Sequence record: OR699282.2 | Source of the DNA: Escherichia phage BAU.Micro_ELP-22 | Length of the DNA stretch: 64,000 bases | Strand: one strand, 5' to 3' | Part shown: positions 3,017 through 63,126 of the stretch, piece after piece | How the letters are laid out: each line of letters starts with the position of its first letter | Numbering within the stretch: position 1 is the stretch's first letter | Translations under genes and position numbers: made by a program | Notes under the pieces: model-generated | Seen by the model: the letters and a program-made list of their open reading frames with translations, nothing else | What the model was told of the DNA's origin: nothing | The model's database searches: none

Positions 3017-5680
3017 ATGGCAGGAGATCTACTCTCACCTGGCGTTTCCATTTCAGTAACTGATGAAAGTATGAGTACCGCTGCTGCTCCTGGCACTGTA
3101 CCACTATTTGTAATCGCTACTGCTGAAGACAAACTTGTCCCAGGAAGCAGTGCAATAGCTGCGGGAACTACTAAAGCAAACGCTGGAAAACTACAGCTTC
3201 TAACATCACAAAAAAGCTCACTTGATACCTATGGTACACCAATTTTTCAAATGAATAACGGTTCTGTTGTTCAAGGTGATGAACTAAACGAATATGGCCT
3301 ACATGCAGTATATTCTTATCTAGGCATTACTAACCGTGCATATGTAATTCGTGCTGATATCGATCTAGCACAACTAGCACCAAGTGCTGAAGCACCAACT
3401 GGCCCAGTATCCAATGGTACTTTGTGGTTTGATACCGCACAATCACAAGTAGAAGCGTATGTAGCGAAGAAAGATAGTCCAAGCAGTTTTTATGATTGGC
3501 AACTTAAGCCAGTAACTATTGTAAGTGCTGAAGAAGTTGAAGATGTAAGTCTAGTAGGTTTAAATGTTGATGATTTAGTTCTACGTTACAAACCAAGCAA
3601 TGGTCAGATGCTAATGTATAAACGTTCTGCTTCTGGGCTAGTGCAAATGGAAACTTATCTATCACCAATTAACAAAGTTCCAGTTGGCTCAACTGTAGAA
3701 AAAGGTAACATTTGGATTCGTGATGGTTACACCCAAAATGGTTCAAACTATTTTGGTACTCGTTTTGTTATTAAACGTTATGCATCCCTAACTCAAGTTT
3801 GGAATATTGTACCAGCATATACTGGTAATTCATTCCAAGAAATTGAAGCGAAAAGTGGTGTACTAAACAATAGTTATATCGCATCTCGTTTTGATGAAGA
3901 TAGTAAGAGTTTCTCTTTCTATATTCAAAGTGCAAAACTAACAACAATTAGTGCTCCTGCTTTGCCACTTGGTGAAACTATTATTGAACAAGCAGGTGCT
4001 GATAGTTATATGACTTTTGTTTATTTGAATAAATCAGTTAAAGTACTAGCAGTTCCACAAGGCGGTGTTATTAATACCCAAACTATCATCAATAATCTAA
4101 ATGCAAATGCTGAAATTATTAACGATGGTTTTAAATTTAAACGTGAAACTAATGGTGGTTTAGTTGTTTCCAATACAAAAGGTTACAGTTTCAAAATCAC
4201 ACAAAGTGGTGATGATATTTTTGCTGAATCTGAACTACAAAAACTAACAGTAGATAGTAACAACTACTCTCTAATTAACGTGAATAACTTCCGTGTTAGT
4301 TATTCAGTACCACGTAGTGTAGCAAAAGAAGGAACTCTCTGGTATGATTTCGGGAACTCCGATAATCTAACTGTAACTATGTATGTTGCTGATGTTGCTA
4401 ATGATGAATGGGATCTAGTACAAGAAGAAAACAAATATGTACAAGTTGATGAACCAGCGGCTGACCGTTTAATTTGGGTTTGTCCTTTGTCTCAAGGCAT
4501 TGATGGTTATGATTTCTATCGTAACGTTGATGGTGAATGGGTTAAACTTGACAGTACTGATCAAAGTACACTAAATGGTATGATTTTCCAAGACTTTAAT
4601 TTCCCAAGCCAAGTTCCTGCTGCGGCATTGTATCAAAATGGTATGCTTGCAGTTGACCTAGGTAACACTGAAGGTGTTGTTAAGAAAATGGTTAATGGTC
4701 AATGGGAAGTTGTTAGTGGTGTAAGTCTTGATGGTGCTGGCCTATTTGGTCGTGCTGCACAACGTCAACTAGTAGTTGAAGCACTAGCTGCTGTTATTAT
4801 TGGTAATGATGACATTCGTTCTGAATTTATTGATTTTAACCTAATTTGTGTACCTGGTTACGTTGAAACACTTGATGAATGTGTAACTTTAAACACTGAT
4901 CGTAAAGAAACTGCATTTATTGTTACTGACGTTCCAGCACGTTTGAATCCAACTGGAAACGGTAGTGCTGTACAACAATGGGCTACTAATGCTAACAATG
5001 CACCAAGCAACGGTTCAGTTGGTCGTACAACTGCTTATGATTATGCTGCTCAGTATATGGGTTGGTGTCTAAGTACTAACGTTGATGGTGAAGAAGTTGC
5101 AGTTCCTGGTAGTACTATTGCAATGCGTACATATGCATACAGTGATAGTGTTAGTTATGTATGGTATCCACCTGCTGGTACAACTCGTGGTGTTGTAACA
5201 AACGCTGCAAGTACTGGTTTTATCAACAGCGAAGGTGAATATCAACCAGTAGTATACAACCAAGGTCAACGTGACGTTATGTATACTAACAACATTAACC
5301 CAATTGCAATGCGTCCTAACCGTGGTTTGCTTGTTTATGGAGATAAAACTCTATCTGCTAATCAAACTTCTGCACTAAGTCGTGTTAACGTTGCTCGTTT
5401 AGTTGTTTATATTCGTCGTCAACTAGAAATTATTTCCGAACCATTCCTATTCCGTTTGAATACTCCAAGTACTCGTCAGGAATTTAGTGGTGTAGTTAAT
5501 AGCTTCTTGGCTGAAATTGTTCAACAACAGGGTCTTTATAACTTCGCAGTGGTTTGTGATGAAAGTAACAACACCGCAGAGCGTATTGACCGTAATGAAC
5601 TTTGGATGGATATTGCAATTCAACCAACTAAGAGTATTAACTTCATTTACGTACCAATCCGTATCGAGAAAACTCAATAA
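3017..5680 (+). CDS. tail sheath protein (large, 887 aa)
   Basis: N-terminal MAGDLLSPGVSISVTDES... and C-terminal ...RLVVYIRRQLEIISEPFLF... have the character of contractile tail sheath proteins; sits directly upstream of tube-like genes; strong SD. Confidence 0.75.
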   Translation: MAGDLLSPGVSISVTDESMSTAAAPGTVPLFVIATAEDKLVPGSSAIAAGTTKANAGKLQLLTSQKSSLDTYGTPIFQMNNGSVVQGDELNEYGLHAVYSYLGITNRAYVIRADIDLAQLAPSAEAPTGPVSNGTLWFDTAQSQVEAYVAKKDSPSSFYDWQLKPVTIVSAEEVEDVSLVGLNVDDLVLRYKPSNGQMLMYKRSASGLVQMETYLSPINKVPVGSTVEKGNIWIRDGYTQNGSNYFGTRFVIKRYASLTQVWNIVPAYTGNSFQEIEAKSGVLNNSYIASRFDEDSKSFSFYIQSAKLTTISAPALPLGETIIEQAGADSYMTFVYLNKSVKVLAVPQGGVINTQTIINNLNANAEIINDGFKFKRETNGGLVVSNTKGYSFKITQSGDDIFAESELQKLTVDSNNYSLINVNNFRVSYSVPRSVAKEGTLWYDFGNSDNLTVTMYVADVANDEWDLVQEENKYVQVDEPAADRLIWVCPLSQGIDGYDFYRNVDGEWVKLDSTDQSTLNGMIFQDFNFPSQVPAAALYQNGMLAVDLGNTEGVVKKMVNGQWEVVSGVSLDGAGLFGRAAQRQLVVEALAAVIIGNDDIRSEFIDFNLICVPGYVETLDECVTLNTDRKETAFIVTDVPARLNPTGNGSAVQQWATNANNAPSNGSVGRTTAYDYAAQYMGWCLSTNVDGEEVAVPGSTIAMRTYAYSDSVSYVWYPPAGTTRGVVTNAASTGFINSEGEYQPVVYNQGQRDVMYTNNINPIAMRPNRGLLVYGDKTLSANQTSALSRVNVARLVVYIRRQLEIISEPFLFRLNTPSTRQEFSGVVNSFLAEIVQQQGLYNFAVVCDESNNTAERIDRNELWMDIAIQPTKSINFIYVPIRIEKTQ

Positions 5681-42546: not shown

Positions 42547-45500
42547 TTACTTAACTAATAATATATTTTTAATATCATTACCACTAACTTGTAGACTATC
42601 AGTGTATACTGAAAGATCTATAGTGTAACTATTTTGTGTGTAACGTTTTAACATATCATAATTACCTAAATTAATTCCATTGAAAGAATATGTAGTATTA
42701 AGTTTAAAATCATGTTCTGCACTATACATTACACCACGGAGTAAATTATTTGCATTTCTAACTTCAACTTTTTCATATCCAATCGATATAATATCATTCA
42801 TGTTCGCGGCTGAACCGGATAAAACATTATTTCTAATACTATAAGGACTTATTGATTTAGGTTGAGAAACATAGGTTGTATTTTCTTCACTAATGGTTGT
42901 GATGTTAGTAACAGTACCCCCAACAACACCGATATACATACCGTCAACCATTGGGAATCCATAAACCCATATCCCTTCATTATTTCTAAACGGTTGAATA
43001 ACACTTGAATCATATTCGATAACGTTGATTTCTAAACTATCAGTCATTTTAGTTCTTGCCAATTCACTAAGAACTCCCGCACCCGTAATTGGTAAGTTAT
43101 AACCGTTATCGATAGTAATTCCATCAACATCAAATATTTCATTGGAGATTATCCAAACGTCAACGTCATCTGGTGTTATTCCGTCATTGTACTTACCACC
43201 ATTTAAAGTAGTATCGTAGAAAACATCATAATTAATTACATCAATGGTGTAATTTCTATTTTGTTCATACAATTTAATACCATTCTTGACAAATTCAGGG
43301 TCAGCAAATGTTCTAACACGAACAATGTTCAATGCTAGAGGCTGTACTGGCTCATTTTGTTGTGCAAGAGTGATGTTATCATAACGGAGAACTGCACCAG
43401 TACTCTCATCAATCAATTCAATCGTTTCCTTACCTGTATTTCTTACAGTGAATAGGATCGGAGTTGTATTGTTTTTGATGTTAGATACACGCAAGATTGT
43501 TTCCCATGTGTGATTTTGATATCTCACAAAATCTTCACCATCAGGAGTGAAAATCATCACCTTATCACCATCAGATAGGTCATTGTCAACTATTTCTGCT
43601 TCAGTTAAGCTATTAATAGATCTCACACGATAGAAATATTTTTCATCAAACTTCGATGTTGTTTTATTAATATCATTTTCAATCTTAGCATATGAAGGAA
43701 TACTTACAATTGCTTCTGTATGTTTATATGGATTGATAATTGCCATACCTTCAGTTTGATATCTGCTGTTATCACGTAATTGTACAAGAGATACATTGTC
43801 AAACCCATATCCATCAACTGTAAATCTAATTTGTCCAACATCACGCCCAGAAGGGTTTATGTCAGATATATCCACAATATAAGGATCAACTTCATCATCT
43901 TTAACTTCCCATTTTATTGAAGAAGTTTGAGATTCCAATGCTAGGTTATCAAATGCATTCATATCATTGAAGTACTTAGCTTCAGTAATACTATCAAGTA
44001 TATATTGATAATCAGAATACATTGGATTATTTTGATCTAGTGGTAAATCATCAAGATTTATTTCAGCTAGTTCAACCATTTCACCATTTGTGATAAAATA
44101 ATCTTCCATGAAATCATCAATACTTTGTTCATCAGGTATACTTTGATATACACCGTTAACATTTAAGTAAACATATTTTCGTGGAATCATTGTAATTGCA
44201 TAGATATCAATTGGGGTCTTACTAAGAATCTCTTCAGCTTTTTCGTACTTATCAGTAGCGTCTTTGTCGAATAACCCTCTCATACCTGCTAATACGTGAA
44301 TAGCATCAGTATAGAAACGGGTATCACCACCTACTTCATCATAACGATAAACATATACACCATACTCAACTTCAAGTTTAACTTTTACTTCATAGTCTGA
44401 TGCGTCAGGATTTTTATCTTTAATTAATGAAATGTATTTTTGATACAATTCACTGCTTATTTCAAAATATCCATAGTTATAATCATTACTAGAAGAAAAG
44501 CCTAATGGAAGTCTAGTACTAGGATTGTCATTATAAGTAAGTCCACTAAATCCACATCCAACTTCATCGTGAATTTTCTCATCACTTATATCTTTATAAA
44601 GTTTCAAACGGTTTGCCAATGTGTTATACTGAACATATTGTCTAAGGTCAGTAAACATATCGTTATGCGTTGATTCTTTATAAACACGTTCCAATGTAGC
44701 AGTGAATTCATCAGTTGCTTCTAAATCTTCCGCATGGTCTTTATACCACTGGTTAACGCCATATGCTGTTCCTAGTGTTACATCCAATTCTGGATAGTAG
44801 ATTTGCATTTGATAAGCAATAAGAAGATCGAAAGTTTCTTCACTATATTCTGGGAAAGAATATATATAACGTTGTAATTCATAGTTACTAACAGCATCCT
44901 TTTCATTGGATTGATATTTGTTATTAACACTTACTAATTCATTTATGCTTGCCAAATCTTCATTTGGTTTACACTGAATATTATCATAATGCATAATAAT
45001 ATCAATTTCTTGGAATCTTCTATTTGGTGTAACGAAATCACTTGGTAGTGAACCTACCTGTTCCCATTTTTGGGTAATTTCATTAAATTGAGCGTACTCA
45101 TAATCCCAAATATCTTTTTCAGTTTTGATCCAAGAACTGTCAACGAAAATATATCCATTAGGATCTAAATCATTACATAGACCTTTTATTAAATCATCAT
45201 CAGATGTCTTTTGCTCTATTTGTGAACGAATTTTAGTTCTATAAGGTTTAACTTCTTCAAAATATTCAACAATTTGATTAATCAAATTATCGTTTGAATA
45301 GTTTTGAACTAATGATTGTTCCAAACCAACAATATAGATATATGATGTTTTAAATACCCAATCCACAACACTTTGTTCAACATGTACATATTTGACCATA
45401 TCAAAAACAATTTCGCTTTGATGTAAATCGAAAGAATTTTTGAGTAAAGCTAGTGCTTTACGAACGTTGATTTCACGATTGCTTAGTGAACCATTATCAT

Positions 45501-48500
45501 TATGAACACTATAATCTGCGTAAAGCATATCATTGAGTTCAACTGTACTGTTTTCACGACCAATCGCTTTCCAATAAATTGAATCGCGTGATTGTGATTT
45601 AATATACAATGTCCAAATGTTTTCACTATCGGTAACTCTGATAATATCGCCAACTTGGTAGTTTTTAGTATTAGCATCTTCTAAGCTTGACTCTTGAGTA
45701 TAAGTCGTGTTACTATCATATCCAACATCATACCAATCAGCATATGACCAGTACTGAGTCATGTCTAATGAGGTTCCTAGTGATTCAACATAATCAGATT
45801 GTTTAATCATTTTATGTTGTCCCTCACCTTTGTTTTCTAACGTTATAGTAACAACACTACCCGCGTTTGCTGGACTATTCATTAACTGAATATATCCATT
45901 TTCGTCGAAGTGAATAAAATAAACAGCACTAGAAGTTAATGGATTTGGTAGATATCCACTAGTACTTAAAATAACAGCGTCATTTTCTTTAAATTTATCA
46001 CTTTCAACTGCAATAACTAATTCATTATTGTAAGACAACACACGGAAAGAAACTTCATTAGGGTTAACTTCAGTGGTTTTAACATTAAACACATCTTCCA
46101 TAACAACACTATTAGTGGTTATGTTTTGTGACCTATAATAATTATTAGCACTTTCTACAAAGTTTCTACGAGCTTCTATAACATTTTGGAACCAAGTTTT
46201 GTTTGATCCTAAACCGTTATCAACATCTGGATATAATAAATTAATCACAGAACCTGATTCAGTTGTTTCTTGACCAATTAGTGAGTTCCACATTGAATCC
46301 CAAATTAGTGGGTTAAAGTTATAGCTGTCACCTTCTTTACATAGTTGATACTGGTCATGTTTAACAACTTCAGTACTATCCATGTAATAAGAAACAGTTA
46401 AAATACTGGTATCATCATTCACTTTAAATTGCATATTACTAAGAATAAACGAGTTTTCATTTATTGGAGCGAACCAAGGAATGTTTAGCTGTGTTGGATC
46501 TTTAATAATACGAGCAATGTCAGTACATGATTTCGTTCTGGTATGTAGTGGTGGTACATAAATTGTATCACGTACCCAGAAATAGTATTTTGTCACATAA
46601 CTATCAGTTGAACTATCATATTCCAAAAATGTACTATAATTATCTTCAAGTGCAGTTCCACTTGGTAGATACATAGTATTATTTTTGTTTTTCTTAGCAA
46701 CATCTTTACAGTATTTGTCCCAGTTATATGGCTCAACTGGTGAACAAACCCACTCTAACACATCAATGGTACTATGTGGCAACAAACGGCCCCAGTTGTA
46801 ACGTTTGTATTCATTGGTTGCATCAATATCAACATTACCGTCTGCGTCATAAATTGCACGAGTATAATCCAAATAAAATGCAGTGCTAGTGTTCCACCAT
46901 ACTTGACCAACTTTATCAGCACCCCAAGCCTGGATTAACTCTCCATTACTATTATACTGTGCAGGATCAACTGGTGAAGTATATGTTACGTTTTGCATAG
47001 CCGCACCTGGAATAACACCATTAATTGGGTCATAAACATTTAGATATAGCTCAGTAATGTTAGTACGTTCATCATATGTCGTTGGACGATCAAATAAAGT
47101 ACTTTGTGGTGCTTTAAAACTATATTTCTTGTCAATGTAAGCTTGACGTTCATCAGTACTGGCAAAACGTGATACATAACGATACAAACGTGGACGTGTA
47201 TCTGGATCAGTAAATTCAATATCAATAGAAGTGTCAAATGGAACTACCATAACTTTAGGATCAGAACCAGCAGTATAATATTGACTTTCTACTGTTAAAG
47301 TATCTGGCATAAAGTTAGTTTCATCAACAAAATAATAATAATCACCATCTTCAAGTGGTACATTATCAGTTAAAGTTACTTTACAAAATTGTTCAGCATA
47401 CACATCGGTATTTTCAATAGGTGTTATAGAAACCATTTGCACATTAGTATCAACCAATTCAAAAATGTTCCACAAACCATTACCGTCTTTAAACATCCAC
47501 ACAGATTCAGGATTTTCACCTTTACCATTAGTATAAGTTATGCGGTCATTATATGCAGTACTGAAATCTTTTGTTGTGTACGATACTTCATCCAATGTTA
47601 CTGGACCAATATCTGGAAGTTGGATGTTTTCACTTCTTCCACTACGCATTGGGAATGAGAACTTACCATTTGGACGTGTAATCCAACGAGGATCTTTACC
47701 TTGCTCACCGAAGTATACAATATGATTACCATTACCATTTGAAGTTGCATTTACATCAAAAGAAACCATTTGAGGTTGTTGTTTAAATTGGTCATTGATT
47801 AGTTTAAATTGAAGGTTTTTCTTACCATCAATATTACCATATGTACCAATTTTAAATGCCCATTCTTGTAATGCTTTATATTCATCAGTGTCATATGATT
47901 TAGAAACACGAAGTACACGTTCTAAAACTTGGTTAGTACCTTTATCGTGAATGAATCCTTTATAGAAATCAACACGACTAACATCACTACTAATCATACG
48001 CTGTAGATAATCACGAGATTGATAACCAATCAAATGGTTTGACAACTCTTGTAATTGTACATCACTTACTGGAGTTTCACTATCATAATAATGTTGGAAA
48101 TCCGACACTAATTTTTCAAATGATGGTAGTGTTCCAGCTTCCAAGATAATAAATCCAGGAGCTTGTAGGCGACCAGTCCATGAACCAGTAATATATCCAT
48201 ACATTTTAATTAGTTCTTGAATAGAACCATATGTTGGCTGATAAATGTAATCACCAAAAATAGTTTTATCATCAAAAATAACAGCATGTTCATATGAACA
48301 CAAACTTAAACGAATCAATGCAATGCGTTTATTAGATTCTAAAGTTCTAACAGTGAAGATATTTCCAATACGAGAAGTTTCAATTTCATATTGGCGAATA
48401 CCTTGGTTATTATCATCAAGTAATGACCATACACCACCATTATTTTGCGTAATAGATTGTACTGAACCAAAGTCTGCCCCAAATTTAGCGTTTGCAGCAC

Positions 48501-51500
48501 TTGGGGTACAAGAAATAAATTCACCAGTTACTAGAGAATTCTGACTCCAGATCACGAAATCTTTAGCAATAGTGTTCCAATCTTGTTGAGCACCACTATC
48601 ATTTACATCTTCAAAAATCCAACCATGTTCTTTAAGATATTCACCATATCCACAAATAAAAGTATAAACTTCTTGGTAACTATTGAAAACTTTACCATAT
48701 TCAATTGAAGCTTCAGACTTCCATTCATTATAATGAACAACATTACGGTTTTCCAATTTAAGAGTTACTTTTCTACCATTTTTTACTGGAAGTTTATATT
48801 TAAATTTAGCACCAACTAGATCATATCCATCAATCTGATATGCACTACCATTCCAAGTAATTTTGATCGCACTCATTTGCTCATCACGGATATTATTAGA
48901 ACGAACAAGACCAATGGTTTGGTTTTCTTGTGAAATAAGACCGAAAGATTTAGCATTGAATGTTAGCTGATCTGCTTTAGTAAATCCTCCAATTTTATGA
49001 CCAACATTTATATAAGAAGAACGAACTACATCCCCATACTTGGTAGTAATATTTTTATTTTGATACATCAAATGGTCACTTACAAACATTTGATAACCAA
49101 TTGTTCTTGTGCTATTTTCACCATGAACTACTGTATTTTTATCAAAATTAATACGCTTACGTGTATCACCATAAAGGAATTGTGAACCATCAGTGAATAC
49201 TTCTTTTAAGTTATCGTTGCGGGTATCCCAGAAATAGTTAGCAAATTGTGCTGGTTTAGCTTTATACAAAAGCATCATTTGGTCATATGCAAACAATGTA
49301 GTGTTCATGTATGTAAATTCCATGTCACCCATATCACCATATGTCCAAGGTTCTGCTCTATGATTTAAAGATCCAGACACTAAACCTAAAATTTCAGGTG
49401 CAATATATTCAACCACACAAATATCAATACCAGAAGATGTTTTATTTCCAGTTTTTGTAATTTTGAATGGCTGTACACCAAATCTTTTATATTTGTCATA
49501 TTGACCACGACGATCACCAAATAAAATAGTTCCAGTACTGCTATCGCCAATAGTTCCGTCAATATCCCAAAGACCACTAGGAACTAAATCACCTTGCTCA
49601 TTCATAACAAGTGCTTCATATACATATACAACATCACTATCACGTTCACCAACTTGAACAGCCGTTGGTTCGTATTCTTGGTTCCACCAAGTTGGACGTT
49701 GTGTAAAGCCAAACATTTCCCACGGATGGGTAGCTGGGCGATATGTACCATATTGGTCAGTGTAAATGGCACGCCATGAACCACGTGCAGGAATTTCAGT
49801 ACTTTGACCATTAACTACATAATAAGTGCCAGTATAGTTCCAAGTTCTCCAATTGTTAGGATCATAATCATGTGTACTATTACTGATACCATTAGTTGCG
49901 GTGAAGTTAATGTATCCACGTAGTAATAATGTTTGTTTCTCTTCAGCACTATATTCAGTTTTAGTGAAATATGGTGTAGGGAAAAGGTCATCACTATTCA
50001 ATACTGGTACGTAATCAACATCTTTGAATTTATTATCAATACTATTAAAAATTCTATTTTCTAATTCATATACAACATCATCCATTTTATCAACACCATT
50101 GATAACACGGTATGCTTTGGAAATAATACCAGTATGACTGATGTTATAACAGCTTGGTTTACTACCAGCAGTGAGGAATGTCGCTTTTTCTGGTACATAT
50201 GCTTGAAGAATACCTAAGAACTGTGGTGTTGGTGGTATAAATGCACGAATGAATCCAGAAGTACTTCCAACATTATCATAATAGAATGGGAATGAACTAT
50301 CACGTCCCATATTAATAGTAGTTAAAATTGCATCAACAATGTTTGCAGCACTATTTTGTAAAAAGTCTGATGGATTTTCATCATACATACGAAGCATTTG
50401 TGTATTAAATTTATTAATGAATCTAAAATATTCAGATTGCATAAACATAGTTGCTTCAAACAAATCAATATCTTCATTTGCAGTATGTGCCATCAATGGA
50501 AGCATAGATGCTTCATTTTGGATAATTTTAGTACCTACGCCATTATTAACCAATCCTTTAGCCAAACGTTCTTCATAGTCATTGAAATCATCAGAAGAAC
50601 CACGTGTAATGTTCTTTTGAATAATATCCTGAAAATGTAAAGTGTAGTCACCTTGGTTAATGTATATAATATTAGAATTATATGGGTTATTTTGTAGGTT
50701 GATTGGAACTTCATATGCACCTAATTCTTTATTAGGAGTTACAGTACTGCTATAAGTTCTAATTTGAATAACAGAATCTTCATCCAATTCTACAGTACTA
50801 TCTAGAGTGATGCTTTGTACTTGACCTTTTGAAACATTTTTGGTATATTTGGACACATCAACACCATCAACCACAACTTCAATAATATCAGAATCATTAT
50901 CTAAAACTTTTTGTGCCAATTCGAATGTATGGTCATATTTTACAATCTGAACACCATCACCAGTAATTGGATGCCAATCTAGATAAGTTTCACGGTCAGC
51001 TTTATAGTACTGATATGTTCTATCAACTTCAATAACATATGCATACATACCATCAACTGGTTCTTTAAAAACTTCCATATCATAAACAGTACTGAATACA
51101 CGATACATATCAGTACGTTGGACTTGTGGAGTTTGTTTTACAAATTGTTTAGAGTACTCTTCTGAACGAACCCAATCGGTTTGAAGATTCATTTCATTAT
51201 TTTCATCAATAATGTTATAATAGTATAAACCATCAATTTCAACTTCTTTTCCAAGATGGTCATAGGTATAACGTTGGGATTGTAAAAAGTTTTCATAAAT
51301 GTAATAATTATAATCACCAAGTTCAATGTTATATCCATATACACTATCAGTTGCATAGTTGTAATTTATTTTAAAACCAAACAACTCTGAACCTTTAAAG
51401 TTACTTGATGGATATGTAGTACTGTTGTCAAGTTTGATACCATTACGATCATAAAGTTGGAATTTAGGGAATACGTTAACACTAGTTTTTGATTGTGCAC

Positions 51501-52548
51501 GAACCCACAAAGATCCATTCCAGTACATAGAACTATTACCATACTCATTACCTTTAGTGATTAGAACAACATCACCATCTTGAGGTTCACCACTTGGGCG
51601 TGATTCGGTTTCTTCTTCTGGATCTAGTGCTAAACCATAAACACGAGTACCATCTTGCATTTTTTTCACATATACATTATAAATTCTATTGTTTTCACCA
51701 TTGTTACCAATACTGGTGAATAGAATACGCATTCCATCTTGCGGAATAATACCATCAATACGTATACCACTATTAATATCTTTTTGAACGATATCTTCAG
51801 GTTTAATAATATCAGAGAACAGATCAACAGTTCCACGGAATTTTGTACCGTAGTTAATTAGCTCAATATTTTTATTATATTCAATAATTGGTGCACGTGC
51901 ACGAATAAAACGTGAATCTTGCATTAATTCTTCAGTTAATATTGAGCCATCTTCTAATGTTTCACCTAAAGTATACCAAAAGTTTTGTAGTGACCATGTA
52001 TTACCATTAAGTGCTCCACGTTCCATTACAATGTAATCAGGTGAAGTAATATTATAAGAGTTTTTAGTATCCCAAAGATATGAGCTAAAATTGTTCATTT
52101 TATTTGGGTTAATAGCTGGAGTCCATGCATAAAACTTACCGTTGAACAAACGGCTTTCATTATCGGTTAGTGCTCCATAATGATTCATGTATCCAACTAG
52201 ATCATCATAAAATTGAATTGAACGAATTGTCGAATCATCATTTTTTGAGACGTAAGCAGTGGACAACTGATAAAGTTGACGTGCTACAGTACTTTCATGT
52301 AAGAAGATATTACCAGCAGCGGCAGGAGAACCCATATCACCAATATAGCCGTCAACTAATTCGTTTTCAGCCGGATTAAACCATTGTTGAATAACATCAT
52401 CACTGACTTTTTGAATATCTTCTAAGCCTTGCATCCACTCAGGCAATCTTTTAATAAAAAGCTTCTTCTGTACTGCTTCAGCCATCTGTGTAGGTTGAAA
52501 CTTAAAATTATTAGTCATTTTTGGACTCCATATAATTCGTTCATTCAT
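42547..52548 (-). CDS. giant protein (3333 aa), probable baseplate or tail component
   Basis: Uninterrupted 10 kb frame directly downstream of the baseplate-J-like gene; alternative ATG at 52518 has a GGAG SD. Confidence 0.65.
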   Translation of the reverse strand: MNERIIWSPKMTNNFKFQPTQMAEAVQKKLFIKRLPEWMQGLEDIQKVSDDVIQQWFNPAENELVDGYIGDMGSPAAAGNIFLHESTVARQLYQLSTAYVSKNDDSTIRSIQFYDDLVGYMNHYGALTDNESRLFNGKFYAWTPAINPNKMNNFSSYLWDTKNSYNITSPDYIVMERGALNGNTWSLQNFWYTLGETLEDGSILTEELMQDSRFIRARAPIIEYNKNIELINYGTKFRGTVDLFSDIIKPEDIVQKDINSGIRIDGIIPQDGMRILFTSIGNNGENNRIYNVYVKKMQDGTRVYGLALDPEEETESRPSGEPQDGDVVLITKGNEYGNSSMYWNGSLWVRAQSKTSVNVFPKFQLYDRNGIKLDNSTTYPSSNFKGSELFGFKINYNYATDSVYGYNIELGDYNYYIYENFLQSQRYTYDHLGKEVEIDGLYYYNIIDENNEMNLQTDWVRSEEYSKQFVKQTPQVQRTDMYRVFSTVYDMEVFKEPVDGMYAYVIEVDRTYQYYKADRETYLDWHPITGDGVQIVKYDHTFELAQKVLDNDSDIIEVVVDGVDVSKYTKNVSKGQVQSITLDSTVELDEDSVIQIRTYSSTVTPNKELGAYEVPINLQNNPYNSNIIYINQGDYTLHFQDIIQKNITRGSSDDFNDYEERLAKGLVNNGVGTKIIQNEASMLPLMAHTANEDIDLFEATMFMQSEYFRFINKFNTQMLRMYDENPSDFLQNSAANIVDAILTTINMGRDSSFPFYYDNVGSTSGFIRAFIPPTPQFLGILQAYVPEKATFLTAGSKPSCYNISHTGIISKAYRVINGVDKMDDVVYELENRIFNSIDNKFKDVDYVPVLNSDDLFPTPYFTKTEYSAEEKQTLLLRGYINFTATNGISNSTHDYDPNNWRTWNYTGTYYVVNGQSTEIPARGSWRAIYTDQYGTYRPATHPWEMFGFTQRPTWWNQEYEPTAVQVGERDSDVVYVYEALVMNEQGDLVPSGLWDIDGTIGDSSTGTILFGDRRGQYDKYKRFGVQPFKITKTGNKTSSGIDICVVEYIAPEILGLVSGSLNHRAEPWTYGDMGDMEFTYMNTTLFAYDQMMLLYKAKPAQFANYFWDTRNDNLKEVFTDGSQFLYGDTRKRINFDKNTVVHGENSTRTIGYQMFVSDHLMYQNKNITTKYGDVVRSSYINVGHKIGGFTKADQLTFNAKSFGLISQENQTIGLVRSNNIRDEQMSAIKITWNGSAYQIDGYDLVGAKFKYKLPVKNGRKVTLKLENRNVVHYNEWKSEASIEYGKVFNSYQEVYTFICGYGEYLKEHGWIFEDVNDSGAQQDWNTIAKDFVIWSQNSLVTGEFISCTPSAANAKFGADFGSVQSITQNNGGVWSLLDDNNQGIRQYEIETSRIGNIFTVRTLESNKRIALIRLSLCSYEHAVIFDDKTIFGDYIYQPTYGSIQELIKMYGYITGSWTGRLQAPGFIILEAGTLPSFEKLVSDFQHYYDSETPVSDVQLQELSNHLIGYQSRDYLQRMISSDVSRVDFYKGFIHDKGTNQVLERVLRVSKSYDTDEYKALQEWAFKIGTYGNIDGKKNLQFKLINDQFKQQPQMVSFDVNATSNGNGNHIVYFGEQGKDPRWITRPNGKFSFPMRSGRSENIQLPDIGPVTLDEVSYTTKDFSTAYNDRITYTNGKGENPESVWMFKDGNGLWNIFELVDTNVQMVSITPIENTDVYAEQFCKVTLTDNVPLEDGDYYYFVDETNFMPDTLTVESQYYTAGSDPKVMVVPFDTSIDIEFTDPDTRPRLYRYVSRFASTDERQAYIDKKYSFKAPQSTLFDRPTTYDERTNITELYLNVYDPINGVIPGAAMQNVTYTSPVDPAQYNSNGELIQAWGADKVGQVWWNTSTAFYLDYTRAIYDADGNVDIDATNEYKRYNWGRLLPHSTIDVLEWVCSPVEPYNWDKYCKDVAKKNKNNTMYLPSGTALEDNYSTFLEYDSSTDSYVTKYYFWVRDTIYVPPLHTRTKSCTDIARIIKDPTQLNIPWFAPINENSFILSNMQFKVNDDTSILTVSYYMDSTEVVKHDQYQLCKEGDSYNFNPLIWDSMWNSLIGQETTESGSVINLLYPDVDNGLGSNKTWFQNVIEARRNFVESANNYYRSQNITTNSVVMEDVFNVKTTEVNPNEVSFRVLSYNNELVIAVESDKFKENDAVILSTSGYLPNPLTSSAVYFIHFDENGYIQLMNSPANAGSVVTITLENKGEGQHKMIKQSDYVESLGTSLDMTQYWSYADWYDVGYDSNTTYTQESSLEDANTKNYQVGDIIRVTDSENIWTLYIKSQSRDSIYWKAIGRENSTVELNDMLYADYSVHNDNGSLSNREINVRKALALLKNSFDLHQSEIVFDMVKYVHVEQSVVDWVFKTSYIYIVGLEQSLVQNYSNDNLINQIVEYFEEVKPYRTKIRSQIEQKTSDDDLIKGLCNDLDPNGYIFVDSSWIKTEKDIWDYEYAQFNEITQKWEQVGSLPSDFVTPNRRFQEIDIIMHYDNIQCKPNEDLASINELVSVNNKYQSNEKDAVSNYELQRYIYSFPEYSEETFDLLIAYQMQIYYPELDVTLGTAYGVNQWYKDHAEDLEATDEFTATLERVYKESTHNDMFTDLRQYVQYNTLANRLKLYKDISDEKIHDEVGCGFSGLTYNDNPSTRLPLGFSSSNDYNYGYFEISSELYQKYISLIKDKNPDASDYEVKVKLEVEYGVYVYRYDEVGGDTRFYTDAIHVLAGMRGLFDKDATDKYEKAEEILSKTPIDIYAITMIPRKYVYLNVNGVYQSIPDEQSIDDFMEDYFITNGEMVELAEINLDDLPLDQNNPMYSDYQYILDSITEAKYFNDMNAFDNLALESQTSSIKWEVKDDEVDPYIVDISDINPSGRDVGQIRFTVDGYGFDNVSLVQLRDNSRYQTEGMAIINPYKHTEAIVSIPSYAKIENDINKTTSKFDEKYFYRVRSINSLTEAEIVDNDLSDGDKVMIFTPDGEDFVRYQNHTWETILRVSNIKNNTTPILFTVRNTGKETIELIDESTGAVLRYDNITLAQQNEPVQPLALNIVRVRTFADPEFVKNGIKLYEQNRNYTIDVINYDVFYDTTLNGGKYNDGITPDDVDVWIISNEIFDVDGITIDNGYNLPITGAGVLSELARTKMTDSLEINVIEYDSSVIQPFRNNEGIWVYGFPMVDGMYIGVVGGTVTNITTISEENTTYVSQPKSISPYSIRNNVLSGSAANMNDIISIGYEKVEVRNANNLLRGVMYSAEHDFKLNTTYSFNGINLGNYDMLKRYTQNSYTIDLSVYTDSLQVSGNDIKNILLVK

Positions 52549-56571: not shown

Positions 56572-57060
56572 TTATACGGATTCAACAATACGTGCCATCT
56601 TTTCCGCTCTTGAAGTGGTTTGTTTATACCATGTACTATCACGCAATTCCTTACCAGCAGTTTTATAATCAGCCTTACCTAATGCGGTCATTGCTTTTTT
56701 AAATTTTAAAACTTTGGTTTTGCCCATCTGGAATACCATCAACCATAATACACGTTGAACCTGTACAGGTGCGGTCATACCAAATTGTTCATAAATTGAT
56801 TTTGCATCATTGTACGCAGTTTGAGCATCTTTAAGAAGAAGTTGGTCAGCTTGTGCTTCTGTTAAACCATTCTTGAAATTTTCACCAGGTAAAACTAGGT
56901 GACCATAGCCAATAGTATCAAGACCTAAGCTGTCTTTATATACCCAAAACTTATCATTTTTAAAATAACCAAGTTTTTTCTGATAAGCAATAGTTCCTTC
57001 AAATTCTTTAATTTCCTTAAAAAATTGCTCATCTGTATTTTTAATTTCCCATTTACTCAT
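56572..57060 (-). CDS. GH24 (T4-lysozyme-type) lysozyme
   Basis: EFEG...YKDSLGLDTIGYGH...LWLMVFQMGKTKVLKF...STWYKQTTSRAEKM matches T4 lysozyme blocks, with catalytic Glu/Asp/Thr positions conserved. Confidence 0.85.
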   Translation of the reverse strand: MSKWEIKNTDEQFFKEIKEFEGTIAYQKKLGYFKNDKFWVYKDSLGLDTIGYGHLVLPGENFKNGLTEAQADQLLLKDAQTAYNDAKSIYEQFGMTAPVQVQRVLWLMVFQMGKTKVLKFKKAMTALGKADYKTAGKELRDSTWYKQTTSRAEKMARIVESV

Positions 57061-57076
57061 AAAGATATCCTCGTTT

Positions 57077-57084
57077 TATTTATA
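57077..57084 (-). promoter_or_regulatory. T4-type late promoter box TATAAATA (minus strand)
   Basis: Exact TATAAATA 16 nt upstream of the lysozyme ATG, followed by GAGGA SD. Confidence 0.5.
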
Positions 57085-57096
57085 GTACTAAAATAT

Positions 57097-59760
57097 TTAT
57101 TGACATGCCTCTAAACGACGAGCCATTAACTCAGCACGGCGAGTAGTTTGGCGATACCAAGCTGAATTACGTATTTGAGCAGCAGCTTGTTTATAATTAC
57201 CTTTAGCTAATTCAGACAACATAGTTTTAAATTTAAGTACCCCACCTTTACCCATCTGGAATACCATTTGGCATAGTACTTGTTGAGCCAAATAAGGTGT
57301 TTTCATGTTGTATGAAGCATAAATTGATTTAGCATCATATATAGCTTTACTACTATCACGAACTAACATATCGTTGGCTTGCTGTTCAGTTATTCCATCT
57401 GAAAAGTTTTCACCACTAATAATTAAGTGACCATAACCAATAGTTGGATACCCACGACTATCCAAATAACGCCAGAATTTACCATTACGATAATATCCTT
57501 TTGCTTGTTGGTATTGTAATGTACCTTCATATTCTTTTAATTCAGAAATAAATTGTGCATCACCTGGAACAACTTTCCAATCGATTGCAGTTTTATCAAC
57601 ATTTCCAATATTATAGGTAGGTTGCTCCACCGGAGTTGTTGAAGCTCCACTTCTCTGTGTTCTTCTCCTACGAGGCACATGACGAGAACCACGTTGAGAA
57701 TATCCAGTACCTATCGTTTTGATTTTTGTTGTAACTACCAATTCATCACTATCAACTGAAGGTTGTACAACTGCTTTTGGAGCAGATTGATTAGTTGCTT
57801 GACCACCAATTAATGTTTTATTCGCCGCATCAGACCCTGTTCCTGTTTGTGAAGCATAAAATAATCCTGGGTCAACAGAACCACTGAATCCAAGAACATT
57901 TGCTGATGTAACACGAATTTCAAACTGTATGACACCATTTGCTTTTCCAACAACTTGACCTTTTTGAACAACATCTTTGTTTAATAAATCAGATTGAATA
58001 TTATAAAAAATAGATTTATATCCAGACTTATGTTGTATTAAAAGAGCACCATTAGTAATTACTACCACACCACCATCTGGTGCAACTACATCACCTTTAC
58101 ATTGTATTTCCCAACCTGAACGGTCTGCCTTTCCTCCACTTTGTGTTGGAACACCTTTCCCCCAGTAACCATATTGTCGAATAGTGCCGCTACATGGCAT
58201 TAACATATGTAAACCTTCATATGTAATACTATATCCAGTCATCCCAGGATCAGATGTCATCAAATCTTGTGATTGAACTTGTTCAGTTTCTGATGTATAG
58301 TTAACAAACTGAACAGCTTCAGTGTCTTGTGCTACGGGTAATTCTGGTGATACATCATTTGCTGGTTGTGGTTGTACTGGTGATTCACTAGAACCACTTC
58401 CACCACCTTGTCTTGGTGGTTCAACATAACTACCATGATTTTCAGCGTTAACCCATGCAGCAATATCATGAATGTGTTCATTAAGACCAGCAGATGGTGT
58501 TCTAAAGTTTGGTGCAGTAAATTCAGCAGTACCGCTATTACCACCACTATTAACTGTTAATGTTTGACCACCACCACTAATAATTGCTGATGATGATCCA
58601 ATTAGGTTTGCAGATGTTGCGGCAGAAATAGAAGCATTTGAACCAGCCGTAATATCAGTACTGCTACCACTTTGCATACGTAATGATGCAGCAGTAACTA
58701 AACGAAGGTCTGCCCCAGAATTAACAACAACTTGTCCACCAACTTTTGCATCAAGAGCACCAATTAGATCTAATTTAGTATTTGCACCAACTCGTGCATT
58801 GAAATCTTGTCCGGTTTCAATATTATATGAACGTCCAGCAGTAATATTAATATCTTGACCAGCACGAATATTAATATTCTTATCACAGTGCATGTCAATA
58901 TCACCTTCACCAGTGAATTTTATACGTGCAGTTCCATCACGGTTAATTAAAAGAACATCACCAGTAGCTTCTGATAAAAGAAGTTGTGCACCACTACGTG
59001 TTTTTATTACGACACCTTCATTTTTACGAGAACCAACACGTGTATCGTTTACTGGGTTATTAAATTGTGTATCTTGATATCCATCTGGGTCTTGATCCCA
59101 CGTTGGTGCTGTTAATTCCTCTTCAGTATATCCATCATCAATAATAAAACTATTACCACGTGGCGAAGACATACCATATACAGTACTGGTGGTTTGTCGA
59201 GTACTACTACGATTCGCCAACCCAGCTTCTTCGTCATATAAAAGGTTTTGCTTTTTAAGACCTGCGATAATTGGAACGTTAGCATATTTGTCTTGCATAT
59301 CGGTAGTGATAGTGTTACGATCATAGTCAGTAACAGGAAGTGGCATATCAGTTCCACCATAATTACTTACTTCAGTTGCCATACCTGGAACCATAGTATT
59401 CATACGCTGGTCATATACACAACCAATCCAATATGCTTGGAATGTACGGGCTTGTGCAAAAATTACAACAACTGTACACCCTACGTCTGGTGGTACTGCC
59501 CAAAAACCGTATCCTTTTGGATATTGACCATATGCATCAGCACTTGGAATACCTGGTGTTTTACCAGCAAAAGGAGACATGTAAGATGCTTCTATCCATG
59601 ATTCTTTTGAGTTTTTATCACTTTGAGAACCTTGTATCCAAACTTTCAGTTTTCCTGATTTAGTTGGATCTCTGTTATCCATAACAGTTGCTAACTGCGG
59701 ATAAGATGGGTCAAAACGACCCAACTGCTGTTGTGCATACTTTTTACTTGTATCTGCCAT
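57097..59760 (-). CDS. baseplate central spike protein with C-terminal GH24 lysozyme domain
   Basis: Central NINIRAGQDINITAGRSYNIETGQDFNARVGANTKLDL-type beta-helical repeats; M23/LytM-like region lacking obvious HxxxD and HxH; C-terminal YEGT...YLDSRGYPTIGYGH...CQMVFQMGKGGVLKF...SAWYRQTTRRAELM. Confidence 0.75.
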   Translation of the reverse strand: MADTSKKYAQQQLGRFDPSYPQLATVMDNRDPTKSGKLKVWIQGSQSDKNSKESWIEASYMSPFAGKTPGIPSADAYGQYPKGYGFWAVPPDVGCTVVVIFAQARTFQAYWIGCVYDQRMNTMVPGMATEVSNYGGTDMPLPVTDYDRNTITTDMQDKYANVPIIAGLKKQNLLYDEEAGLANRSSTRQTTSTVYGMSSPRGNSFIIDDGYTEEELTAPTWDQDPDGYQDTQFNNPVNDTRVGSRKNEGVVIKTRSGAQLLLSEATGDVLLINRDGTARIKFTGEGDIDMHCDKNINIRAGQDINITAGRSYNIETGQDFNARVGANTKLDLIGALDAKVGGQVVVNSGADLRLVTAASLRMQSGSSTDITAGSNASISAATSANLIGSSSAIISGGGQTLTVNSGGNSGTAEFTAPNFRTPSAGLNEHIHDIAAWVNAENHGSYVEPPRQGGGSGSSESPVQPQPANDVSPELPVAQDTEAVQFVNYTSETEQVQSQDLMTSDPGMTGYSITYEGLHMLMPCSGTIRQYGYWGKGVPTQSGGKADRSGWEIQCKGDVVAPDGGVVVITNGALLIQHKSGYKSIFYNIQSDLLNKDVVQKGQVVGKANGVIQFEIRVTSANVLGFSGSVDPGLFYASQTGTGSDAANKTLIGGQATNQSAPKAVVQPSVDSDELVVTTKIKTIGTGYSQRGSRHVPRRRRTQRSGASTTPVEQPTYNIGNVDKTAIDWKVVPGDAQFISELKEYEGTLQYQQAKGYYRNGKFWRYLDSRGYPTIGYGHLIISGENFSDGITEQQANDMLVRDSSKAIYDAKSIYASYNMKTPYLAQQVLCQMVFQMGKGGVLKFKTMLSELAKGNYKQAAAQIRNSAWYRQTTRRAELMARRLEACQ

Positions 59761-59773
59761 AATATTTTATTCC

Positions 59774-62023
59774 TTAATCAACTATACTATCGTGACGTTT
59801 GAGTGCACGAATTACAATTGCAGCTTGAATTTGTTGTGTAAAAGAACCACCTGCACCAAAATCATGAACAATTTTATTAACACGATAAATTGTTTGGTTA
59901 AATGTGGTTGGTGTATTAATATCCAAAACACCAGTGTTATCATTTATTGATATTACTGGTTGTAATTTTAGTAATAGATACGCTTCAGATGTTATATAAT
60001 TTGCTACATGATAATCATCTGGGTTAATTTCCATATCTTCACCATTAATTACTTGTTCTAGATATTGTAAGTAAGAGTAATCACTCCACCCTAACCAGTA
60101 CGGGTCACCTACTACACGCATATCGAGTTTACACAAAAAAGGTCTATTGTAATAGTTGTCACGTATTTTACGTCTATCCATTTCATATGTGCTGCTGTTA
60201 TCGTTTAACGAAGCGGATAAAGTTGTTTCATTGTTAGTTGCTTCGGTTGGCATTGTGAACACTTCACCATAACGGTGACCAACACCATCAGTGCCACCAT
60301 CGTTTTCTTCATAAGTGGTTACATAATCTTCAATATATTGAGGTAAAACATTGACTTGATAGTTATTATAACGGTCTTGTTCTTCTGCGTTACCAACCTG
60401 CATTTGATTTTTTGCTAAAGTTTCAACTTCAGTTAACAATTGTTGTTGGGCTTGTGTTAACATCCCTCCTAAATCACGAGTTACACGTAAATCACTTGTT
60501 TTTGCCCATGCGTCTGGTATACTATTGTATTGTACACCTTGAATATTGAGTTCTTGGGATGTATGTGTACCTGCATGGTTCGCTACATCTTGTATCGGAC
60601 CAGGGTTACGTGTAGTGGCTACGAAAAATTGCTGATCAAATTTCAAATCCAAATCAAGTATCTCACTATTAAGCCCACTAAATTGATAATTATAAGTTTT
60701 CATGTTTATTTTTGGTTTTTGATCATTAGGATCTACGTATTTTTCTGCGTTCTCAAAAAAGTACTCAAATGTGAAATTTTCAGGTTGTAAATCCGATTCA
60801 TGAACAATATCACCTATTTTAAATCTAACAATATAAAAAATTACTTTATAAACAGAAGTATTACGATAATTATCAAAACCAACGTATTGTTTAACTGGTA
60901 TAATGTTTACAAATTGACGCACACTAGTACTATCATCGGCTTGTACAGTACATGTATCAATAACGTCATCAATAATTCGAGATATAGGAGTACTTGGGTT
61001 CCATGAAAAGTTTTTAGAACCTTGTGCACCACTTTTAGTTGTTCCGGCCTCTGCCATTTGTTTAGAATCATAGTTTATAAACAAATCTTGCAAATCAGGT
61101 GCTACTTTAAATTCGAAAAATTTACCTTCGGATAATTCACCAAATTTATATCTAAGATAACCATATTGTTGGTCAGCCATCTGATTTAATTTATCTTCTA
61201 AATCAAAGCAGAAGTCACCAAAGTTTTCAGCAGTACAATTGAATGGTTCTTTTAAGGTCCATTCAATGTTATCAACTAAAGCTGCTCTATTATGAACTAA
61301 GTTCATAGTATACATCATAGTACTACCACTTTGTGAAGCACTTGCAGTAACACTATTAATTTTAACTGACCAGCGTCTTGTTGTTTCTGGGATAATTTCA
61401 GGTATTCCATTTTTATTAAAGCCAATAAACTTTAATTCCAAGATCAATGGCAAGTCCATAAATTTATGATATCTAAGTTTGTTACTTAACGAAATTAATT
61501 CATCATATAGACTCATACTATTATTTTCAGACATATTAAGTACTGCTGTATTAAAACAATAGTTTGTTGTCATTCCTGGTGTTGAAGGTCCAGCTTGTGT
61601 CATTTGTACACTAGTGATATTATATTTGCCAGTAACACCACTTTCTGATATCACATGTCGTTGCACTTCTGCATCTGGGTAAAGCCAAAAGTTTTTAAAA
61701 TCATCTTTATCTAAGGCAAATAAACAAAAGTGCCAAGTTGGGTTATCATATTTCAATAATTTATTGTCATACGGTATTACAAACTGACTTAAATCGAGAT
61801 CTTCATAAACTTGATCAACACTAGCACTTTGTTTTGGTAATGATACTACATTACTTACATTTGCTTTGTAATTATTTTTTGTAATAGTTTTTACATCATT
61901 TTGTAATGTATTTGCTGTAGCTTTCAAACTATCAAGTGCATTAGATGTGGTGGTTTTAGCCTTACCAGTAATACTTGTAATATCATTTTGAAAATTATCA
62001 ACTGTACTTCGTAAATCTGCCAT
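59774..62023 (-). CDS. hypothetical baseplate protein (possibly hub-associated)
   Basis: 749 aa directly upstream of the spike gene; ATG with GGAG SD; position only. Confidence 0.4.
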   Translation of the reverse strand: MADLRSTVDNFQNDITSITGKAKTTTSNALDSLKATANTLQNDVKTITKNNYKANVSNVVSLPKQSASVDQVYEDLDLSQFVIPYDNKLLKYDNPTWHFCLFALDKDDFKNFWLYPDAEVQRHVISESGVTGKYNITSVQMTQAGPSTPGMTTNYCFNTAVLNMSENNSMSLYDELISLSNKLRYHKFMDLPLILELKFIGFNKNGIPEIIPETTRRWSVKINSVTASASQSGSTMMYTMNLVHNRAALVDNIEWTLKEPFNCTAENFGDFCFDLEDKLNQMADQQYGYLRYKFGELSEGKFFEFKVAPDLQDLFINYDSKQMAEAGTTKSGAQGSKNFSWNPSTPISRIIDDVIDTCTVQADDSTSVRQFVNIIPVKQYVGFDNYRNTSVYKVIFYIVRFKIGDIVHESDLQPENFTFEYFFENAEKYVDPNDQKPKINMKTYNYQFSGLNSEILDLDLKFDQQFFVATTRNPGPIQDVANHAGTHTSQELNIQGVQYNSIPDAWAKTSDLRVTRDLGGMLTQAQQQLLTEVETLAKNQMQVGNAEEQDRYNNYQVNVLPQYIEDYVTTYEENDGGTDGVGHRYGEVFTMPTEATNNETTLSASLNDNSSTYEMDRRKIRDNYYNRPFLCKLDMRVVGDPYWLGWSDYSYLQYLEQVINGEDMEINPDDYHVANYITSEAYLLLKLQPVISINDNTGVLDINTPTTFNQTIYRVNKIVHDFGAGGSFTQQIQAAIVIRALKRHDSIVD

Positions 62024-63080: not shown

Positions 63081-63126
63081 CTTTTTGATTCTCCATAATA
63101 AGGGAACATTTGATGTATTTATACGT

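Follow-up and report, generated by a model that had tools for sequence, protein, structure and literature searches.

A Rak2-like jumbo coliphage baseplate spike with an internal HxH motif, a degenerate LytM domain and a C-terminal GH24 lysozyme domain

Results and discussion

We analysed a stretch of 64,000 nucleotides (hereafter the window) from Escherichia phage BAU.Micro_ELP-22 (sequence record OR699282.2), an Asteriusvirus (Rak2-like) jumbo coliphage. The open reading frame (ORF) listed at 57097-59760 on the minus strand, where all features described below lie unless stated otherwise, codes for 887 amino acids (aa) plus a stop and is the baseplate central spike of this phage, with a C-terminal wall-degrading extension that ends in a GH24 lysozyme domain at residues 725-887. 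An initial annotation, made from the sequence, had placed a central spike with a C-terminal lysozyme at these positions, and this proved right. It is likely that the protein forms the trimeric spike of the Rak2-like jumbo myophage baseplate and that it delivers its C-terminal domains into the periplasm in the way proposed below.

The layout itself is already known, as it was described in the RaK2 paper (2013) and the CBB paper (2017). The former reported gp078 as a baseplate lysozyme with a "very unusual domain composition", in which a beta-helix is flanked by two unmatched regions and a lysozyme is C-terminal, and contrasted it with T4 gp5; the latter reported an N-terminal gp5 OB domain, a C-terminal lysozyme, the same contrast with gp5, and what may be an M23 domain in the centre, common to Rak2-like phages. 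Both the order of helix before lysozyme and the M23 match are thus on record for RaK2 gp078 and CBB_240, and the Rak2-like orthologues, with 56-100% full-length identity and an identical domain order, differ in nothing material from the present spike. The protein also carries an annotation in existing records, being an annotated coding sequence in PP886230 at 100% identity. The initial annotation had missed these records and publications, as well as the invariant HxH motif described below. What we add, and what neither the two papers nor our literature search contained, is threefold: the M23 active site is lost throughout the family, the HxH motif lies within the chain, and the C-terminal cargo was surveyed across homologues; these are refinements rather than a new kind of system. 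In the literature search we came across neither a high-resolution structure of a Rak2-like baseplate nor any treatment of degenerate LytM domains in phage spikes.

The needle and its internal HxH motif

The protein begins with an N-terminal helix and a gp5/VgrG-type OB-fold (residues 1-116; 59413-59760), for which Pfam Phage_base_V matches residues 23-116 above the cutoff. It is followed by a middle domain (residues 117-250; 59011-59412), which is the best-conserved part of the protein: its mean pairwise identity in an alignment of 69 full-length family members is 0.66, the highest of all segments, and P125, D176, R188, G196, P200, D208 and D209 are unchanged even in homologues at 22-29% identity. 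This domain may be the interface with the hub or the tube.

The beta-helical repeat region that the initial annotation had proposed around residues 250-420, with structure prediction as a check, was recovered as a needle of 8-residue repeats at residues 251-419 (58504-59010). There is a Pfam match above the gathering score to DUF2345, the VgrG helix family, at residues 278-329; the VgrG1 helix aligns with residues 285-431; and 15 octads stand in an unbroken row at residues 293-412. The autocorrelation of hydropathy at lag 8 is 0.42, about 4.9 standard deviations above the value obtained from 2000 shuffles (-0.01 +/- 0.09, maximum 0.33), and the AlphaFold2 (AF2) model agrees with a beta-helix in this region at a predicted local distance difference test (pLDDT) score of 86-96. 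Since the AF2 model is that of a monomer, we only infer that the helix is triple-stranded and that the three chains intertwine.

Directly after the helix lies an Apex-like segment (residues 420-450; 58411-58503) with an HxH histidine-cage motif, H429 and H431, which is kept in all 69 members. The local sequence of this segment is similar to the P2 gpV Apex 'LHTHKHPGDSGG', and the context of the motif, "TPSAGLNEHIHD" in the spike and "SSNVSLNNHTHPHGDP" in the relative P0085, resembles in both cases the end of P2 gpV, "SSNGKVLHTHKHPGDSGGTTGSPL". According to the Apex literature, HxH makes up the histidine cage that binds Fe in the Apex domain of P2 gpV (residues 191-211) and is the diagnostic used to recognise Apex spikes. 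The spike shares with the Apex spikes P2 gpV and phi92 gp138 the succession of OB-fold, beta-helix and HxH in similar surroundings, but whereas the Apex ends the P2 protein, 456 residues follow H431 here, so that the motif is internal rather than near the C-terminus, where an Apex would form the free tip.

The GH24 lysozyme domain and its free-standing paralogue

The C-terminal domain (residues 725-887; 57100-57588) has the T4-lysozyme fold, and T4 gp5 is among its best PDB sequence matches. The catalytic Glu, Asp and Thr of GH24 enzymes (E11, D20 and T26 of T4 lysozyme) correspond to E745, D767 and T773, in keeping with the initial annotation, which had these catalytic positions as kept; this holds on proper alignment, which required some care. 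D767, T773 and H778 align with D20, T26 and H31 of T4 lysozyme, but the Glu helix and the Asp strand are separated by an insertion of 12-13 residues, and this upsets automatic alignment at E11: the residue was misplaced by MAFFT on three sequences, and direct pairwise alignment came out shifted by one position. The position was set through a paralogue, a free-standing GH24 lysozyme of 162 aa encoded between the spike and the gp25-like gene (56572-57060), which is 52% identical to the spike domain over 159 residues without a gap. E21 of the paralogue aligns to T4 lysozyme E11, and therefore, by the gap-free alignment, E745 is at the position of the catalytic Glu. Of the 69 members, 68 have E745, 68 have D767 and 50 have T773.

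The pair of spike lysozyme and free lysozyme is a duplication kept in Rak2-like phages, for example as CBB_239/240. LysUE1, the orthologue of the 162-aa paralogue in phage UE-S1, lyses EDTA-treated Escherichia coli; it has the same insertion of 12-13 residues, which is therefore compatible with activity. From its sequence, the GH24 domain of the spike is apparently an intact muramidase.

The degenerate LytM domain

Between needle and lysozyme, the initial annotation had noticed an M23/LytM-like region without an obvious HxxxD or HxH motif. Both parts of this description held. Residues 520-640 (57841-58203) form an M23-fold domain: the spike sequence alone scores 22 bits against Pfam M23, under the 28.7-bit cutoff, and 25 of 29 family members match it, the best at 1.2e-10. 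When the full-length family profile was run against the PDB, T4 lysozyme entries dominated; with trimmed regions, the profile of the M23-like region matched LasA (6e-7), SpoIIQ (1e-6), DipM and EnvC. Residues 495-700 were also modelled separately with AF2; pLDDT is above 90 over the LytM domain, and Foldseek with this model placed DipM (2.9e-6) and EnvC (3.6e-6) on top, followed by many active M23 enzymes.

The catalytic positions were set by aligning to the family profile the M23 domains of two related spikes, P0177 and P0256, which end in canonical M23 domains (117-120 bits). Residue by residue, the positions of HxxxD are occupied by R547 and E551 in the spike, and that of the catalytic His of "YAHL" by N587; of HLH, the first His lies in a loop of 7-9 residues that is deleted in the family, and the second corresponds to Q612. 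None of the 69 members has His at 587, 610 or 612, or Asp at 551, so the ligand set is never formed; a His at 547, the HxxxD His position, occurs in five of them, each time without the paired Asp. Trp550, beside the position of the Asp ligand, is invariant. The fold of an active M23 peptidase is thus present, and its zinc ligands and catalytic His are not. The mean pairwise identity of the domain (0.55) is on a level with that of the lysozyme (0.53) and exceeds that of the helix (0.51). Because the active site is lost family-wide and conservation nevertheless equals that of the lysozyme, this is a degenerate LytM domain that has been retained for a non-catalytic role; the initial annotation had suggested that it may be a binding module.

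EnvC, NlpD, DipM and SpoIIQ resemble it in having the M23 fold without zinc ligands, and the top structural matches come from this group; they are bacterial regulators or scaffolds, whereas the LytM domain of the spike is part of a virion protein. The tail-tip enzyme gp13 of phi29 differs in another way, in that its M23 domain is active as an endopeptidase and that gp13 does not belong to the OB-fold/beta-helix spikes.

The linkers

Two linkers flank the LytM domain. The first (residues 451-519; 58204-58410) is rich in Gly, Ser and Pro and contains a conserved PANDV motif and, in the AF2 model, a strand at 478-486 and a helix at 490-499; its conservation is low (0.37-0.44) and pLDDT is below 50 at 501-511. 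The second (residues 641-724; 57589-57840) contains a conserved linear motif, ELVxxT...IGxGYxQRGSxxxP, at residues 673-696 (57673-57744), in which the part IGxGYxQRGSxxxP spans 683-696 and V675, G691 and P696 are invariant, and then a hypervariable basic stretch. The motif has a mean identity of 0.56, the basic stretch one of 0.28; the latter is disordered, with pLDDT below 50 at 701-719. A strand at 675-682 was modelled with confidence only if strand 478-486 was also included, which suggests that in the model the two strands clasp the LytM domain.

Comparison with known spikes and exchangeable cargo

Like T4 gp5, the spike combines an OB-fold, a GH24 lysozyme and an octad beta-helix within one polypeptide. 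In gp5, however, the lysozyme is located between OB-fold and helix, and the end of the helix is capped by a separate PAAR protein, gp5.4, whereas here the lysozyme (725-887) comes after the helix (251-419), beyond the HxH motif, and there is a LytM domain in addition. The initial annotation was therefore correct in setting the position of the lysozyme apart from that in gp5. The protein lacks one defining feature of each of two families: the lysozyme position of the gp5 family and the C-terminal HxH of the Apex spikes.

The initial annotation had also called the layout evolved-VgrG-like. This stands as a description of layout: as in evolved VgrG proteins (e.g. VgrG3 with its peptidoglycan hydrolase), an effector is placed C-terminal to a gp5-like helix, homologous spikes carry other C-terminal hydrolases, and one has a VgrG3-like C-terminal domain. 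It does not stand as family membership, because the spike has no fused gp27-like N-terminal module and belongs to a phage baseplate rather than a type VI secretion system locus; its cargo would serve the phage's own DNA entry.

The full-length layout was found in 72 genomes of the phage collection, with identities to the spike of 68% in RaK2, 57% in CBB, 56% in GAP32 and 40% in a Vibrio phage, and the Yersinia fHe-Yen9 phages included; PA5oct, Atu_ph07 and SCTP-2 have only the N-terminal 40% in common with it. An exhaustive search with residues 1-460 returned 1461 cluster representatives at E <= 1e-3 and 293 at E <= 1e-30; lengths were 360-1176 aa. We surveyed the C-terminal domains of 53 long homologues outside the Rak2-like family, and found, among others, GH24 in 15, GH19 in 4, Phage_lysozyme2, M15_3 and SLT in 3 each, M23, M15_4 and a SleB-type hydrolase in 2 each, and GH108, a VgrG3-like C-terminal domain, OmpA, trypsin and a GDSL lipase in one each. 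The homologue P0124 has GH24 followed by an M15 peptidase. Two distant homologues occupy the equivalent slot of their genomes (gp53-like gene, large structural gene, spike, gp25-like gene, gp6-like gene, giant gene), one ending in GH19 and the other in GH24. Judging from this variety of hydrolases on homologous spikes, the needle serves as a conserved platform for wall-degrading cargo that is exchangeable. Contractile-tail phages thus build spikes as modules, a phage counterpart of the evolved VgrG effectors, and spikes with wall-cutting cargo are a possible source of enzymes for attacking Gram-negative cell walls from outside.

Proposed role of the spike

We propose that the spike sits in the hub, where the tail tube ends, and is held there by the OB-fold and the conserved middle domain, and that the octad-repeat beta-helix would be a rigid needle capped by an Fe-type HxH histidine cage. 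Beyond the end of the needle, each chain would run through flexible linkers into the dead LytM domain and then the GH24 muramidase. Contraction of the sheath would drive the needle through the outer membrane and carry the tethered modules into the periplasm, where GH24 would cut glycan strands locally so that the tube could cross the peptidoglycan. The dead LytM domain, with no cleavage of its own, would most likely hold or position the enzyme on the peptidoglycan or regulate it.

This reading is favoured by the octads, the invariant gpV-like HxH, the domain identities, the operon position, the detection of orthologues in virions, the behaviour of the P2 spike, the in vitro lytic activity of a paralogue with the shared insertion, and a dead LytM domain conserved to the level of the lysozyme. 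The gene lies between the gp53-like and 749-aa structural genes on one side and the gp25-like and gp6-like genes on the other, and this synteny is kept in distant relatives. Mass spectrometry (MS) detected the phAPEC6 orthologue gp241 (95.9 kDa; 7 peptides) in virions and, in the CBB paper (2017), the orthologue CBB_240, and the P2 spike has been located experimentally in the periplasm after infection. The CBB authors predict another, membrane-anchored protein as the endolysin, which fits a role of the spike enzyme in entry and not in lysis.

Several points weigh against it. The support comes from sequence, model and orthologues, and the RaK2 orthologue gp078 was undetected by MS (RaK2 paper, 2013). 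The position of Thr773 is variable in 19 of the 69 members. A wider tip of the P2 spike cuts infectivity about twofold (Apex literature), which makes cargo at the tip awkward, and the monomer AF2 model does not show how the helix intertwines or where the cargo (~3 x 48 kDa) would lie relative to the sharp Apex. In this reading an iron-capped needle point would have to bear ~150 kDa of tethered protein, which poses a mechanical problem.

In a rival reading, the extension could be cleaved during assembly, leaving residues 1 to about 450 as the mature needle and the LytM-GH24 piece retained non-covalently or lost. T4 gp5 is cleaved into gp5* and gp5C, a precedent that the authors on RaK2 also cite, and in the present protein the conserved QRGSxxxP (689-696) adjoins the disordered basic stretch and three linkers are of low confidence. 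The conserved motifs are, however, equally explicable as interaction sites, and the MS data on phAPEC6 list the protein at its full predicted mass, although that report carries no gel-slice positions. On balance we regard cleavage as rather unlikely. A different function of the protein altogether, as another baseplate or fibre component away from the axis with HxH merely a metal site that keeps the chains in register, would agree with the internal position of the motif and with the HxH cages that the Apex literature also places along or inside receptor-binding fibres; the folds and the synteny speak so clearly for the axial spike that we give this very little credence.

For the LytM domain, too, something other than holding or regulating the muramidase can be imagined. 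It could mimic EnvC and NlpD, that is, bind and activate the host periplasmic amidases AmiA/B/C, so that the host amidases would be switched on at the point of penetration and entry would combine hijacked autolysins with the phage muramidase. The only hint of this is that EnvC and DipM lead the fold matches, and since active M23 enzymes score nearly as well, we think it improbable.

Genomic neighbourhood

The DNA at the spike coordinates is 100% identical to that of Escherichia phage vB_EcoM_E9.1 and 99.8% identical to that of further Asteriusvirus jumbo coliphages, PBECO4 and phAPEC6 among them; the G+C content of the window is about 34%. The spike gene has an AAGGA ribosome-binding site in front of its ATG, and 13 nucleotides separate its start from the end of the upstream gene. 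In the order of transcription, a 243/273-aa structural gene, a gp53-like wedge gene and a 749-aa structural gene come before the spike, and the 162-aa lysozyme gene, the gp25-like gene, a 1153-aa gp6-like wedge gene and a 3333-aa gene follow it. This is a baseplate core block.

The 749-aa protein directly upstream (59774-62023), which corresponds to phAPEC6 gp240, a protein detected in virions, sits where a gp27-like hub would be expected; no Pfam or PDB sequence match to it was found, and its gp27-like nature is presumed from its position. The 3333-aa ORF (42547-52548) corresponds to phAPEC6 gp245 (382 kDa), a virion protein by MS, and the same slot in a distant relative (L003) codes for 5254 aa. 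A second ORF of 887 aa, at 3017-5680 on the plus strand, was considered as a relative of the spike and ruled out: it is the tail sheath (phrog_10581), and the identical length is coincidental.

The T4-type late promoter box TATAAATA occurs twice in the 64 kb, against 10.4 +/- 3.3 copies expected from shuffles. One copy (57077-57084) is 17 nucleotides upstream of the 162-aa lysozyme gene and the other (63116-63123) precedes by about 33 nucleotides the annotated start of the gene that opens the baseplate block. A gene annotated as a gp55-like late sigma factor adjoins. Since there are two copies where about ten are expected, and both stand at the start of a gene or block, the motif appears from the sequence to be depleted except at operon starts.
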